Positions 3,456 to 60,334 of a stretch of DNA of 64,000 nucleotides are shown piece by piece. The DNA is from Eledone cirrhosa. Lineage: Eukaryota. Under the pieces are notes generated by a model. The model saw nothing but the letters and a program-made list of their open reading frames with translations, was not told where the DNA came from and did no database searches. Where the stretch lies: positions 2,790,001-2,854,000 of the forward strand of contig OZ024751.1 of assembly GCA_964016885.1 (NCBI GenBank), given 5' to 3'. A program made the translations under genes and the position numbers. The stretch's first letter is position 1. Every line of letters begins with the position of its first letter.

Positions 3456-3531
3456 TTGCCTCGTCTGACGAACGAATGAAGTCGTTTATTTCGTATTCGC
3501 CTCATTCGGGAAACCTCTGGTAATGAGGTAA
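3456..3531 (+). ncRNA. Type I hammerhead ribozyme in Naiad pLTR
   Basis: Stem I ttgcctcgt/atgaggtaa; CUGACGA 3465-3471; stem II cgaatga/tcattcg; GAAA 3510-3513; stem III CC-tct-GG; UA cleavage after 3522. Confidence 0.8.
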
Positions 3532-3895
3532 TTATATTGTATTGATTTTTATACGTTAAATTTTGCTCTGATACTTACATAGAGCACTCTTCATTTCTAT
3601 GACCTTTTCTGTTTCCAACGGAAATTTCAATACTTATATATATATATATATATATATATGTATATGTATATATATATATATATATATATATATATATATA
3701 TATATATATATATATATATATATATATATATATATATATATATATATATATATATATATATATATATATGTATATATATATATATGTATATATATATATA
3801 TATATATGTATATATGTATATATATATATATATATATATGTGTGTAACGCCAAAAACTCTCTCCGAGCAATATAAGTAACACTTTTGATTATTTA

Positions 3896-3936
3896 TGCCC
3901 TTGAGAAGCCCAACAGGGCGAAACGTACGTAGGTGC
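3896..3936 (+). ncRNA. Minimal hammerhead ribozyme with U3-A8 core variant
   Basis: UUGAGAA 3901-3907; stem II gccc-aaca-gggc; GAAA 3920-3923; palindromic stem III CGUACG; UA 3930-3931. Stem I is weak (gccc/ggtgc). Confidence 0.7.
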
Positions 3937-4178
3937 TGTTTTAAATAAACATGTTTTAACGGTCTATTCTCCGATTTTTTACTTTCCCAAGTGCTTACGC
4001 TCTGCTAACTCTCTAGCCCACTAAATATTAACACTTCGAATATTTAATACTGCCGACACTAGTATCGAGCACCTTTGGCATACGCTACTTCTCAAATAAC
4101 TATATGTATCACCTATCCTCCCCTTTTTTTCTCTTTCTCGATACGTAAATACTGTATATGTATATATATATATGTATA

Positions 4179-7100
4179 TTGTTCCCAGTAAAAAATAGTT
4201 TAATTAGGAATAAGTAAATATTAGTAATAAGTATTGGTTAGTATTCAGTTTTGGTTTTAAGTATTTACCGGTTGCGCATTTCTAATGCTTTTCAAAAATA
4301 ATTTTGAGATAGAGCGCCCGTGATGTTTGCTCTAATCTGATTAGTTTTGGAAATTCTACCTGTTTTATGTGAAAAAAGTGGCTCCAGATGTATTAAAATA
4401 AGTTTCGCGCCAATTCGTGTTGCAAAAATTGTTGTGGTCAAAACAATTTTGATTGGTCGGTAAAGGTCATGTGAATGTTAAAAATTGATTTTGCGCCAAA
4501 TGTAGGTTTGTCTCGGTTGATTGAGAAGTCACTGAAAAATAAGTCTTTCAAGACAAATATATGTGTGTGTGTTGTAGTAGTAAAGAGGTTCATTGTTGTG
4601 ATAATAGTCAGTAGGGATGTGTGTGTGAATTGCAGTCATGTTGACAGGTCAACAGTTCAGGTGCCTATTAAGACAAGTGTGTGTGTGTGTGTGTGTGTGT
4701 GTGTGTGTGTGTGTGTGTGTGTGTGTGTGTGTGTGTGTGTGTGTGTGTGTGTGTGTGTGTGTGTGTGTGTGTGTGTGGCAGAGTAATTCGTGGTAGAGCG
4801 ATCGGTCAGTAGGAATGTGTCTGTACGTGTGTGGGGGGATATTTTAACATGTTAAAAGATATTTTTCAGCTCTTGACTTATACGGAGAAGTGTGTGTGTG
4901 TGTGTGTATATCTCTTTGTATGTTAGTGTGTATGTGTGTGTGTATATATATGTGTGTGTGGGTGGGTGGACTAGTATTTTTGTGATACTGGTAAAAATGG
5001 TGTACATTATTCGATATTTTCAGTAAAAACGATTCTCTCAATAGTACATCAAAAACCTTAATAATAAAAGGTGTGAAATGATATATAGTATTGTCATAAC
5101 ACCTAGGTGTGTGTGAGTGTCCAGATTGTACGTACTGCAAGGGGAATCCATTAGTCCCTGCCGTATTGGAATACTTGTGTACAAATATGTATGTGCCCAT
5201 CAGTGTGGAATGCATGTGTGCGTATATGTATGTGTGCGTGTCGGCACGTTTATATCTATAGACATCAAAAGGTATGCAAATTTGTGTATATTTGTGTTGC
5301 ACCATAGAACATGTGTTTTTACGTATGTCATTGTGTTTATATGTGGATAGAGATGTATATAGGATGTATGCTGATGCAGGTATGTATGTTGACGTGTGTA
5401 TGTTGTGGGTTCGTCTTAGGGAGAAGTGTTTAGACGGGGTCGGTATTTGTTAATAAAGTGAGATTCCTTGCTGATGCGCTGGGTGTGGGTGGCATTATCT
5501 TTAAATTTGTAGAGGGGAAAGATTCGGAAGTTGGGATGATTTTGGGCGGCACATGTATCAATGTGTTCACTCAGTGGTATTTTCTTGTATACCCGTATTT
5601 TAATTTGGGATCTATGGACAGTCATGCGTTGGCGGAGGCTGTTTTTGGTCTGGCCTATGTATTGTTCTCGACAACCTGAGCAAGTTAATACATATATTAG
5701 ATTTTCTGATGCGCATGTGAAATTGTGTTTTACTATAAAACGTTGTCCTTCTTTGAAATAGAATTCCGAATCCTCTATTAGGTTGATGCATATGCCACAG
5801 TTGGGTCTATCGCATTTTTTTACTGTGGGTTTCGTTGTTGTGGTTGGCAGTACTTTGGCATGTGTTAGGATGTTTTTCATTGACTTAGATTGTCTTTTGC
5901 TCTTTATGATATCGTGTGTTCGTAGGATTTGGTTCATTCTATGGTCCTTTTTTAACACAGGGATGTTCTGGGGGATGGTGTCAAAGGCCTCATTGTTGAG
6001 GGGCTTGTGTGTGGAGATGTATGGAAGAGCTTTTAGTTTCGGTTGATTTACTTTAGGGTGTCTAAGGTCCTGGGTACTGAGTTTTAGGGCACGTTGGATT
6101 TTATTGTCAATTAGTGATGCAGGGTAGTCCCTGCCTATGAGTGTGTCCTTTAGTTCTTGTAGCCGTAAGTAACAGGTGTTTTTATTGGAGACTATAGTAC
6201 AGATTCTCTTGGCTAAGTTGTAGGGAATATAATTTTAACGTGTCTAGGGTGGCAAGATTTGAAAGGAAGATATTGCTTGGAGTCTGTGGGCTTGTAGTAT
6301 ATGTCTGTTTCTATTTTTTTCTTATGAATCTTAATGAGGATGTCGAGGAAGGGGAGTTGTTGATGGCTGTATTCCATCGTAAAGTTAATATTCGTGTTGA
6401 GCCCATTTATAAGGGTGTGAAATTCTTTAAGTTTCTCGATGTTTTCGTGCCAAAGGATGAAGCAGTCATCTAGATATCGCTTCCAGTTCCTTTCTATGTA
6501 TAAGTGGAGAGTGTTTCCAAATTTGTTTAGTACTTTAGTGTAGAGGGTGATTTCCAGGTATCCCATGACTAGGTTGGCATAAGTGGGGGCTGTTTTCGTT
6601 CCCATAGCGGTCCCAGATTTCTGCCTGTAGGATTTGTTATTGAAAACGAAGTAATTGTTCTCCAAGATAAATTTGAGTCCCTCTATCACGAATTCTTTTT
6701 TGATGGGTTGTGGGAGTTCATTGTGGTAATTATCCAGCCAGAATTGGATAGCTTCTATTCCTAGGTTGTGGGGGATGTTGGAGTATAGGTTGACTACATC
6801 GAACGTCACTAGTAGGGTTTGTTCAGAAAGGGGAATATTAGGGAGGTGATTGAGCATATCTAGGTCGTCCCTTATATAGCTTTTGATGTGTTTGAGAAAA
6901 GGCTTGAGAAGGGTATCAATGAAGTTGCTAAGGCGGTGGGTTTCGCAAGCGGGGCCTGCTATTATAGGTCTTAATTTGAGATCATTGTGTGAGGGGACAT
7001 TGATGACTATGTCTGTGGCTTCCTTGCATGCCTTACTTATTAATTCGCTTTTATGTACTTTAGGGATACCGTAGAAAAGGCTGGATTTACTTGTGAAGTC

Positions 7101-58810: not shown

Positions 58811-58826
58811 ATATATATATATATAT

Positions 58827-59009
58827 AACGAAGGAAATGTGGTAAGGAACCAGGTGGACCATAACGCACCAAAGTACTCAATACTTGAGGTAGTAGAGTG
58901 GGTAATAGGAACCAGTAAGACCCCGACAGCTGAGCTCAAGCCGTTTCGACGGCAGAATTAGCCGTCGAAACGGCTTGAGCTCAGCTGTCGGGGTCTTACT
59001 GGTTCCTAT
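58827..59009 (-). mobile_element. Short fold-back element with hammerhead 3' half (perfect 49-bp arms 58905-58953 / 58961-59009)
   Basis: Same family as 31732-31926. Confidence 0.78.
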
Positions 59010-59525
59010 ATATATATATATATATATATATATATATATATATATATATATATATATATATATAATGTGTATTATGAGTTCAAATCATTTCGAGGACAAC
59101 ATTTGATTCCATCCTTCTGTTTCGATACTACAAATACCAGTATTCTCTCTGAATGCAAGAGATCGATATATGATTCTCATATCACAACTGCGTCAAGTAA
59201 GGTCAATTAAGCTTCATTGGCGAGGTGCCATAGTGCCGAAACATTTCCTAAGTTATCGCCCATTACTTGGCAAAATTAGAATAAATTATTATTAGTCCTT
59301 GGGTCGCTGTTTTCTTACCTTTACATTCATAAAATTAATTAATTAATGGGGGGAGGGGTATTTTTTATTCGCTACATTAAGTATAACAGCATTGACTTAA
59401 ATATATTGACAGGAAAATGGGAGAGAAAAAAAATGGAACAAAAAGAAAAAGGAAATTAAGCAATGAAAGAAAGGGTACGGAGAGATGAAATGACAGAATG
59501 GACATCTTAGGCCGTCCAGCATGCT

Positions 59526-59790
59526 TCAGCTGCGCCCCGCAGAGAAAATGGTGATGGCATTGCCACGGAGAATGGTCACCAACAATCGCTGCAGCAGCCT
59601 GCCGCCCTACCTCATGGAGCTCCTTCATCAGTAGTCTTCCCGATTTTGCGGGAACCCGAAGACATCTAAAGTCTCGACTGTAACCGGCACCAAAAGGAAG
59701 CGGTCGATCAAGCTTCGGTGTTTAGTTATCTTCCTCTCCGCTGCATTGCGGGTGGTGGTGCTCGGGTTTGCCACCGAGGCGACAAAATTT
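59526..59790 (-). pseudogene. CRE-clade non-LTR retrotransposon C-terminal restriction-like endonuclease fragment
   Basis: AAERKITKHRSL...FLLVPVTVETLDVFG, then after a frameshift LLQRLLVTILRGNAITI*. Confidence 0.75.
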
Positions 59791-60334
59791 TAAATGTTGT
59801 TTGTCTAAACACGACACGATACACCTGATGTAATCACGTATATTTTACTGCTTTTTTGTATGATCGATGAAGGTGGGGAATTGACAGAACCGTTAGAACA
59901 TTTGATACAATGCCTTGTGATTGTTCTGGTTTCAGTTCAAATATTGTTCTGGTGAGATCAAATATTCCTGTTATCGTTTCGGGGTTGATAAATGGATAAC
60001 CAGTCTGATAAGGTAATTGAATATTTTATTTCTATATATATATCTTTCTCTCTTATAGTTGGTTTCTGGTCAAATCTGAATTGACCATATCACCAGTATG
60101 AAATAAGGGATTTCGAATGACCTTAAATCAGTGTGTGTGTATATATATATATATAAAACGTTGTACATAGATATCTTCTGTCATTAAGGAATCCACAAGT
60201 CTGATGAGCCATCGATTCCAGATCGATAGATCGATACCGATCATCCTTTGTGCTGATTGATTTTTAAACGCGCGTTACATGTGAATAAACATGATGTTTC
60301 TATATTGATACCTCGCGCCTACTCATTATTGTTT

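Follow-up and report, generated by a model that had tools for sequence, protein, structure and literature searches.

Hammerhead-bearing repeats in the TA repeats of an Eledone cirrhosa interval: truncated Penelope-like elements, non-coding tandem units and a predicted rearranged hammerhead

The 64,000-nt stretch of Eledone cirrhosa DNA analysed here (the window; contig OZ024751.1, positions 2,790,001 to 2,854,000) raises the question of why so many hammerhead ribozyme (HHR) motifs lie together, and which elements carry them. A previous sequence-only reading proposed a ribozyme-saturated locus that houses a large, probably unannotated community of ribozyme-bearing non-autonomous retroelements mobilised by resident Naiad/Neptune Penelope-like elements (PLEs). 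The reading favoured here, with a probability of roughly 0.8, is that the TA repeats are full of hammerhead-bearing repeats, of which about half are truncated PLE 3' ends and the rest non-coding units likely copied by PLE enzymes, including one family with a predicted rearranged hammerhead.

Hammerhead census and genome-wide density

A purpose-written type I descriptor, applied with a cut-off score of at least 25 and controlled by 100 local dinucleotide shuffles of the window, returned 18 strict-core matches against a shuffle mean of 0.52 (maximum 3), a 35-fold excess. Sixteen of these coincide with sites already listed and two, at 48813 and 49255, are new; the listed sites 22805, 52933 and 57579 score lower (21-23). 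Overall, 19 of the 22 sites described as intact reach a score of at least 21, with CUGAnGA or its U3-A8 variant, GAAA, NUH, C-G-S order and stems I-III, while 28152, 40758 (stem II of just 3 bp) and 23504 (small stem III lesion) are missed by the descriptor and were recovered through homology to family copies. All 30 listed sites are hammerhead-derived, as had been claimed, and the proposed count of 22 intact cores becomes 21 intact and one, 23504, slightly damaged. The eight copies called degenerate each carry a core lesion: G8>A and G12>A at 22680, A6>G at 26432 and 45510, G8>C at 28570, U4>C at 31055, G12>A at 51282, C3>G at 58657 and G12>U at 60194. The asserted diversity and TA-rich flanks likewise hold, since the 30 sites sort into about 17 families and a (TA)n run lies at most 350 nt downstream of 31 of 35 motifs, compared with 27.5% of random positions.

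That type I motifs are chance matches in AT-rich DNA is a notion for which some results could be quoted. No Rfam hammerhead model reaches its gathering score in the window, and the Rfam E-value search returned microsatellite-driven miRNA matches, with no hammerhead among the matches listed (150 of 326 rows). Moreover, single-copy folding energies are not significant in any of the eight copies folded (z from +0.7 to -1.6), and a relaxed-core descriptor finds about 11 matches per shuffled window, a noise level that confined it to naming lesions; the earliest strict descriptor, which tolerated neither a mismatch nor an additional base where stem II begins, found for that reason just 5 motifs. Against chance stand the strict-core excess, the conservation within families (core retained in 70/75, 22/30 and 71/81 members of three families) and covariation, so that this explanation is counted as already refuted. 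Specifically, in families picked for their sequence profile, stem II pairing is stronger for cognate arms than for swapped ones: 15.4 versus 9.0 in family 1 (28 testable of 33 diverse copies) and 13.5 versus 8.9 in family 2 (17 of 25 testable), each matched in 0 of 300 permutations, and 14.5 versus 11.1 in family 3 (6 of 300). Two of the checks proposed in the sequence-only reading, against shuffled sequence and on stem covariation, came out in favour of the motifs. The idea of a special ribozyme hotspot with its own function draws on a density of 2.8 matches per 10 kb in the window versus a mean of 1.55 in 95 distant 10-kb samples of the same genome (950 kb), with P = 0.02 against the first 55 samples alone; it is nevertheless very improbable, as P is about 0.14 against all 95, individual samples reach 17 and 23 matches, and the families of the window occur everywhere. 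On the favoured reading the window is a typical part of this genome, in which hammerhead-bearing repeats crowd the TA repeats, and the label of a ribozyme-saturated locus is not supported.

Sampling suggests about 200,000-500,000 motifs genome-wide, in at least 37 families. This range is given in place of the raw extrapolation of 440,000 (290,000-680,000) because, of two exact genome counts, one revealed a twofold overestimate (13 copies in 950 kb predict 41,000; exact count 20,564) and the other agreed (2 copies predict 6,300; exact count 6,002). Hammerhead-rich repeats are a known phenomenon that here likely attains a very large scale: the minimal hammerheads of metazoan PLEs number about 2,000-9,000 per genome in the accessible part of Cervera and de la Pena 2014 (PMC4209133), and the retrozyme motif counts found in accessible texts are more than 6,000 for coral, spread over 16 families, about 5,000 for mussel and as many as 120,000 for axolotl (PMC7229834; bioRxiv 10.64898/2026.07.22.740005).

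Elements that carry the motifs

Thirteen of the 30 sites, plus two probable ones, are 3' stubs of autonomous PLEs of Hydra or Neptune/Nematis type, the 13 being continuous with RT/GIY-YIG ORFs (Table 1). The clade assignment is provisional and based on motifs: a C-terminal GIY-YIG with a linker of CxCX5C (Hydra) or CX4CxxC (Neptune/Nematis type). Translations of the Hydra-type ORFs at 983-2218, 13380-14908 and 33813-35734 read RT, then C-terminal GIY-YIG with CxCX5C; their nearest Atlas clusters are animal RT/GIY-YIG proteins, Pfam gave no match for them, and the elements carry a canonical HHR near the 3' end and target (TA)n. The N-terminal GIY-YIG that marks Naiad is absent, as the nuclease follows the RT in all four PLE types of the window; of the Naiad/Neptune residents that had been proposed, the Neptune/Nematis type is retained and Naiad gives way to the Hydra type. 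In the stub family at 3845..4180, a PLE ORF terminates some 270 nt upstream in 4 of 14 copies, and this ORF was read in two of them.

These features recall published systems, as far as their accessible text goes. The Hydra clade of Craig et al. 2021 (PMC8557442) shares the C-terminal GIY-YIG, CxCX5C, the HHR near the 3' end and (TA)n targets, a likeness drawn from these motifs; unlike those elements, the copies in the window are 5'-truncated. The hammerheads in PMC4209133 are, as here, of type I with a short palindromic stem III, an extra base after A9, the U3-A8 core variant and many families per genome, mostly as single copies from truncated PLEs with some close opposite-strand pairs.

A further six sites lie in non-coding tandem units of 420-1,000 nt, which are putative retrozymes. 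The 420-, 478- and 1,000-nt units (the last with a period of 999-1008 nt) are non-coding tandems with one type I HHR per unit and longest ATG-ORFs of 35-60 aa, and the 420-nt unit forms arrays of at least 8 units. No PLE ORF is linked to any of 38 HHR copies of the 470-480-nt unit, and sense-linked ORFs number zero in 24, 29, 29 and 19 loci of the 420-, 478-, 532- and 1,000-nt units, respectively. Non-coding units have fixed ends and back-to-back arms, and several families show Penelope-type insertion geometry, although no non-coding family could be matched to an enzyme by sequence. For the remaining nine sites, loci with 1.5 kb of upstream sequence, a reach within the 1-2 kb length of Hydra 3' UTRs, gave no assignment to either class; inverted pairs in these families are almost all divergent. 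The proposal of non-coding, non-autonomous elements consequently stands for several tandem families and fails for about half of the sites, which are 5'-truncated ends of autonomous PLEs.

The community is also not new as a concept, which the accessible parts of PMC4209133, PMC7229834 and bioRxiv 10.64898/2026.07.22.740005 already contain. The metazoan non-LTR retrozymes described there (Cervera and de la Pena 2020; Li, Clavereau and Pollet 2026) likewise consist of non-coding tandem units, each a few hundred bases long and bearing a single type I HHR, for which PLE mobilisation has been proposed too. In contrast to them, many unrelated families neighbour one another here, and they show inverted arms of PLE type as well as fixed ends.

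The motifs sit just upstream of the 3' end of each insert. By analogy with PLE biochemistry (PMC11167929), a PLE protein would nick both (TA)n strands, and reverse transcription would start at fixed sites just downstream of the ribozyme and usually stop early, so that short inserts would keep the ribozyme, often as a divergent pair. In read-through transcripts of non-coding units, the ribozyme may release monomers, possibly circular ones, that PLE enzymes could then return to the genome in tandem and partial-tandem arrays. Counting against this reading, cleavage by the metazoan PLE hammerheads in print is weak (PMC4209133, accessible part), and only one of nine Xenopus retrozyme dimers cleaved in the portion available of bioRxiv 10.64898/2026.07.22.740005.

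Table 1. Hammerhead-bearing features of the window
Position	Strand	Feature	Details
983..3620	-	5'-truncated putative Hydra-type PLE with inverted 3' copy	ORF 983-2218, C-terminal GIY-YIG, CxCX5C
3452-3536	+	HHR, inverted copy in the 983..3620 element	identical sense HHR ~300 nt left of window
3845..4180	+	3' stub of another Hydra-type PLE	U3-A8 HHR 3897-3936
4178..8819	-	Putative Neptune-type PLE, direct pLTRs	ORF pieces 5416-8236; decayed U3-A8 HHRs 4264-4297, 8374-8407
9139-9670, 9671-9830	-	532-nt non-coding repeat unit and preceding 5'-truncated tandem copy	in (TA)n
9209..9310	-	Rearranged S-G-C hammerhead-like motif	predicted cut after 9264; bridging strand and hairpin 9310-9280; tie helix 9278-9273/9233-9228; block S 9269-9258; block G 9252-9240; block C 9226-9209
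9741..9815	-	Second rearranged motif copy, 5'-truncated	predicted cut after 9796; bridging strand lost
10154..11029	+	Tandem of 470-480-nt non-coding unit	monomer-type HHRs with long stem III, 10277-10357, 10798-10878
12111..16848	+	Putative Hydra-type PLE	ORF 13380-14908; sense HHR 16484-16562; inverted copy 12347-12425
17195, 26432, 52933, 58657		Stubs of the 28644..30640 family	HHRs; 17195 a relic
20872..21254	-	HHR family with inverted pairs, no tandem, no continuous ORF link	intact HHR 20882-20980
22667-22785	+	Decayed relative of the 20872..21254 HHR	
22779..23006	+	3' stub of putative Neptune/Nematis-type PLE	HHR 22805-22848
23502..23569	-	HHR	small stem III lesion
27816..28608	-	420-nt non-coding tandem unit	HHR 28135-28208 (-); decayed inverted arm 28570-28608 (+)
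28644..30640	+	Putative Neptune/Nematis-type PLE	ORF 28644-30021; 3' HHR 30445-30487
31017..31549	-	Family with decayed HHR and short inverted end	HHR 31055-31101
32168..36222	-	Second Hydra-type copy	ORF pieces 33813-35734; sense HHR 32192-32268; inverted copy 36121-36198
39940..39990	-	Type I HHR, new to the list	3' UTR of Hydra-type PLE
40223..40302	-	120-nt fragment, intact HHR	homologous to Hydra-type 3' HHR family
40500..40826	+	Abundant family, many inverted pairs	HHR 40758-40813
43785..44963	+	~1.0-kb non-coding tandem unit	HHR 44671-44795, long stem II insert
45180-45814		Diverged relative of 420-nt unit	decayed HHR 45504-45559
46265..46530	+	HHR-bearing family	HHR 46360-46409
48230..48660	-	HHR-bearing family	HHR 48562-48649
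48808..48877	+	Type I HHR, new to the list	relative of 3456 family
49255..49335	+	Type I HHR, new to the list	long stem III
50829..50886	+	HHR	
51230..51400	-	3' stub of GIY-YIG PLE	decayed HHR (G12>A)
52575..52704	+	Intact HHR, long stem II	one of two homologues abuts Hydra ORF fragment
57422-57649	-	Sister stub of 22779..23006	HHR 57579-57624
60191..60286	+	Decayed HHR-like motif	no homologue in the 1.79 Mb of genomic loci searched

A predicted rearranged hammerhead in the 532-nt repeat

The most unusual motifs of the interval, with predicted cuts after 9264 and 9796, were absent from the original list and lie in a 532-nt non-coding unit whose longest ATG-ORF is 52-74 aa. Their blocks stand in the non-circular order S-G-C, and two helices to an upstream strand stand in for stem II; the three blocks would come together in a hammerhead core, with a four-way junction on the upstream strand replacing stem II. 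The six helices are paired in 93.9% of 608 cells, compared with 25-48% in slid controls, and 15 of 32 pairs are compensatory in an alignment whose rows are related through about 6-7 subfamilies. Stems I and III are paired at 98% and 97% (3 and 1 compensatory pairs), and in the 6-bp tie helix joining the stem I and stem II sides 5 of 6 pairs are compensatory. In a sister family found after the model had been drawn, stems I and III reach 99% and 97% and the three extra helices tested 82-88% (28 of 38 copies scored). Exact genome matches to sister subfamilies number 6,002, versus 0 for the reversed pattern, which gives at least 6,000 copies. In 88 loci that bear the motif, the 1.5-kb flanks showed no link to a Naiad ORF. 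Both copies in the window are imperfect; that at 9209..9310 has one mismatch, at 9211, a position that differs from nearly all contigs compared.

For the predicted S-G-C order, the published counterparts found come only from environmental RNA. The type-SGC hammerheads (HRIMA-1) of Eckert et al. 2023 (PMC10085705) share with the rearranged motif this order, stems I and III, all core bases, the short S-to-G linker and an extra helix that ties the stem I and stem II sides. The rearranged motif differs in that stem II is not formed directly. Instead, the segment that follows A9 and the one that precedes G12 both form helices with a separate upstream strand, and a hairpin lies between the two, a topology that the supplements of PMC10085705 and PMC8557442 could already hold. 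It also lies in an animal genomic repeat, whereas in PMC10085705 the genomes of known organisms yielded none.

Two alternatives bear on these families. Nearly all motifs might be inactive remains of autonomous PLEs, either 3' stubs or duplicated pLTRs, with no independent non-autonomous community; the 13-15 of 30 sites that link to ORFs fit this, as does the fate of families 3896, 22805 and 51282, which first looked non-coding and proved to be PLE ends as more copies were read, and the flanks of the loci extend 1.5 kb. This explanation is unlikely, in that the 420-, 478-, 532- and 1,000-nt units lie head-to-tail, in arrays of up to at least 8, with no ORF between copies and no sense ORF link in their loci. 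For the rearranged motif, it is conceivable, though doubtful, that a hammerhead-derived fold which no longer cuts persists as a structural signal, e.g., a binding site for the PLE enzyme. Direct pairing between blocks C and G amounts to only 39% and 49% in two alignments, conservation does not extend to the canonical G10.1-C11.1 pair, the core is absent from the lowest-energy nested fold, and in one PLE cleavage is dispensable for insertion in vitro, which HHR mutants do not impair (PMC11167929). A pure binding fold, however, would not require exactly the bases that are kept: of 99 full-length copies, 96 retain CUGAnGA and 93 GAAA, and the U-H site, at which H is C or A only, persists even though the helices have changed from one subfamily to another. 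The somewhat favoured reading is an active hammerhead, non-circularly permuted and with a topology not described before, in which a four-way junction on a separate strand takes the place of stem II; it would act in the processing of a non-coding, Penelope-dependent repeat, in copies on the order of 25,000, within a census of several hundred thousand motifs that exceeds the published counts found.

The hammerhead density itself extends a known phenomenon, and the rearranged motif matters more. If it cuts, the direct pairing of blocks C and G, which the published permutation scheme takes as given, can vary; non-circular permutation would then be present in animal DNA, and standard descriptors would miss a whole class of genomic ribozymes. 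Moreover, dozens of hammerhead families in a single genome, which Rfam does not detect here, make up a natural library and a test bed for the role of PLE ribozymes and for how retrozymes are copied.

Lastly, when the window was scanned for the five other block orders with a direct stem II as a requirement, no S-G-C match emerged, and the single C-S-G match is the type I motif at 52582 read in another way. Low-depth partial matches to the rearranged motif occur in contigs of two other organism labels (2 and 6 records) and were given no weight as evidence.

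Hammerhead motifs in the window and their carriers

With a probability of about 0.8, the window is read as a set of Penelope-like element (PLE) stubs, retrozymes (non-coding tandem units with a hammerhead) and one rearranged hammerhead family; element anatomy, ORF linkage, insert geometry and covariation form the observed part of this picture. Such a mixed community of stubs and retrozymes represents an already known phenomenon, here at large scale. The type I descriptor permits a mismatch or one additional base where stem II begins and accepts a U3-A8 core and a palindromic stem III, all features reported in PLE hammerheads (PMC4209133). 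In this DNA of 35% G+C, rich in (TA)n, it found 18 motifs scoring at least 25, against a mean of 0.52 in 100 shuffles (500-nt blocks), and the hammerheads proposed by the sequence-only reading are real. Of its 22 intact sites, 19 score at least 21; 28152, 40758 and 23504 fall below the descriptor and are confirmed by family relatives, the label standing for the first two and 23504 carrying a small lesion. A core substitution is present in all eight sites called degenerate. Three intact, four decayed and five half motifs add to these 30 sites. An Rfam search of the window at gathering score returned 0 hammerheads, and single-copy folding energy, no better than shuffles in 8/8 folded copies as expected of short, AT-rich motifs, lends no support. 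Stem covariation was found in three families gathered with a sequence profile independent of the descriptor: the core is intact in 70/75, 22/30 and 71/81 members, and cognate stem II arms outpair swapped arms (28, 17 and 8 testable members), a result reached by 0, 0 and 6 of 300 permutations.

A (TA)n run lies at most 350 nt downstream of 31/35 motifs, as opposed to 27.5% of random positions, in agreement with the proposed (TA)n flanking; the motifs therefore mark 3' ends of inserts. The proposal that many belong to non-autonomous elements holds for six of the 30 sites, located in non-coding head-to-tail units whose inserts end at two fixed points and include inverted arms as well as truncated copies in tandem, but not for 13, which are 3' ends of autonomous PLEs, and probably not for two more (40226 and 52582). 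In the remaining nine, pairs, where present, are almost always back-to-back, which is a PLE signature, and some may be PLE ends, the flanks examined being 1.5 kb. The PLE ORFs of the window place the nuclease C-terminal to the reverse transcriptase (RT), with CxCX5C or CX4CxxC linkers, as described for Hydra and Neptune/Nematis elements, whereas Naiads are described with an N-terminal nuclease and no canonical hammerheads (PMC8557442), so that the suggested resident Naiads are not recovered.

Features of the window and their coordinates
Position	Feature	Remarks
3456, 12353, 16491, 32198, 36128	Hammerheads, PLE 3' ends	Sense/inverted ends of three Hydra-type PLE copies
3896	Hammerhead, PLE 3' end	Runs upstream into Hydra-type ORF in 4/14 copies
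26432, 30445, 52933, 58657, 22805, 57579	Hammerheads, PLE 3' ends	Same family as ORF 28644-30021
51282	Hammerhead, PLE 3' end	Preceded by GIY-YIG ORF in two copies
40226, 52582	Hammerheads	Probable 3' ends of autonomous PLEs
10277, 10798	Hammerheads, ~478-nt non-coding unit	Sense-linked ORF in 0/29 loci
28152, 28570, 45510	Hammerheads, 420-nt non-coding unit	Sense-linked ORF in 0/24 loci
44671	Hammerhead, ~1,000-nt non-coding unit	Sense-linked ORF in 0/19 loci
39983, 48813, 49255	Further intact type I motifs	
4264, 8374, 17195, 26865	Further decayed motifs	
8909-8958, 31743-31838, 58912-59002	Five half hammerheads (G + S blocks only)	Very abundant U3-A8 family (80 matches among loci compared); two pairs are short perfect palindromes; complete motif in comparison locus L083
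9139-9830 (-)	532-nt repeat and a 5'-truncated tandem copy	Rearranged cores at 9220 and 9752 (-)
10327-10412	43-nt perfect duplication of G + S blocks	Directly after the 10277 hammerhead; second potential cut site
40826-43785, 11571-12108	Tandem ~640-nt unit ending (TATG)n, without hammerhead	233-nt internal duplication; both ends presumably resemble the termini of RTE-type LINEs; possibly a non-autonomous LINE with an internal deletion
49648-50089	442-nt near-perfect inverted repeat	Adjoins (TA)n; MITE-like
23060-23249, 8269-8358	Smaller palindromes	
17239-18400, 23256-23447, 47516-47623, 54409-54761, 56828-57010, 60333-60462	SINE-like fragments, one or two repeats	Frequently within or adjoining hammerhead elements
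25154-25696 (+)	180-aa frame	No Pfam match; gives the impression of a DNA transposase fragment
61294-63479 (+)	Gag-like zinc-knuckle frame, then AP-endonuclease-like frame	No Pfam match; probably 5' portion of L1/Tx1-type LINE
36466-38925	2.4-kb (TGG/TGT)-rich triplet repeat	Long open frames; adjoins inverted arm of Hydra-type element

A rearranged S-G-C motif

Inspection of the CUGAnGA cores left unexplained by type I folds identified two with GAAA and the cleavage block upstream, giving the order S-G-C. Both belong to a non-coding unit of 532 nt that shows 95-99% identity over 29 loci and occurs as tandem and truncated copies within (TA)n, and the core blocks are kept in 96/99 and 93/99 copies. 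The model has six helices: stem I, stem III, a tie helix, a hairpin and a pair of 4-bp helices that join one upstream strand to the strand after A9 and to the strand before G12. Over 19 diverse copies these helices are paired in 93.9% of cells, with both-sided changes in 15/32 pairs and slid controls at 25-48%; the controls overstate significance, since the rows are interrelated via about 6-7 subfamilies and themselves served for drawing the model by eye. Direct stem II is paired in 39% of cells. A stronger test is provided by a sister family found once the model was fixed: in the 28/38 full-length copies with both core blocks, pairing reaches 99% in stem I, 97% in stem III and 82-88% in three further helices that were tested, every one of these helices carrying changed letters, while direct stem II is paired in 49%.

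The published type SGC possesses a direct stem II and is described as having no example in genomes of known organisms (PMC10085705). The present motif lacks this defining helix and is therefore not classed as type SGC; on paper, it would function like it. The rearranged hammerhead is a novel form of a familiar ribozyme, and its cleavage is fairly probable. A search mainly of open-access main texts found no later report of such a motif. No linked Naiad ORF was seen across 88 loci (1.5-kb flanks). Eight matches in a 950-kb random sample suggest ~25,000 genomic copies (11,000-50,000), and the sister subfamilies alone amount to 6,002 by exact count.

Proposed mobilisation and the role of cutting

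The PLE protein would cut both strands of AT-rich DNA and reverse transcription would begin from two internal sites, as demonstrated for another PLE (PMC11167929), and these two steps together would explain the stubs that carry a ribozyme, the divergent pairs and the presence of two fixed ends. Read-through transcripts of the tandem non-coding units would be cut to monomers or circles and then copied by PLE enzymes, a cycle already proposed for retrozymes (PMC7229834, 10.64898/2026.07.22.740005). That cutting is essential is countered by the weak cleavage described for minimal PLE motifs (PMC4209133), by the activity reported for 1/9 Xenopus dimers (10.64898/2026.07.22.740005) and by insertion proceeding in vitro without cleavage (PMC11167929). 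The persistence of catalytic bases despite helix turnover, in turn, argues that cutting was under selection while the families spread.

Density across the genome

Across 95 stretches of 10 kb at round coordinates along the chromosomes (950 kb), 147 matches occur, or 1.55 per 10 kb (95% interval 0.98-2.26), where shuffles predict ~6. The density of the window, 2.8 per 10 kb, gives P = 0.02 against the first 55 stretches and P = 0.14 against all 95; thus, the locus, initially regarded as ribozyme-saturated, is not special within the genome. The random matches sort into 37 families, a few singletons being possibly false. Counted exactly over the genome, one family pattern occurs 20,564 times and another 6,002 times (reversed patterns, 0), and, because the sample overshot the first twofold and agreed with the second, the total in the 3.0-Gb genome is estimated at 200,000-500,000 motifs. 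Published counts include 2,000-9,000 (PMC4209133) and >6,000, ~5,000 and up to 120,000 (PMC7229834); for the giant squid, 235 hammerhead 1 loci are listed (PMC6962438), and the main text of a detailed Octopus vulgaris repeat annotation contains neither 'ribozyme' nor 'hammerhead' (PMC13282606). Two-armed arrays built from a hammerhead unit of 311 nt (loci L067 and L081 and one more random stretch) account for 28/147 random matches, and a second array family has 14 matches in locus L279.
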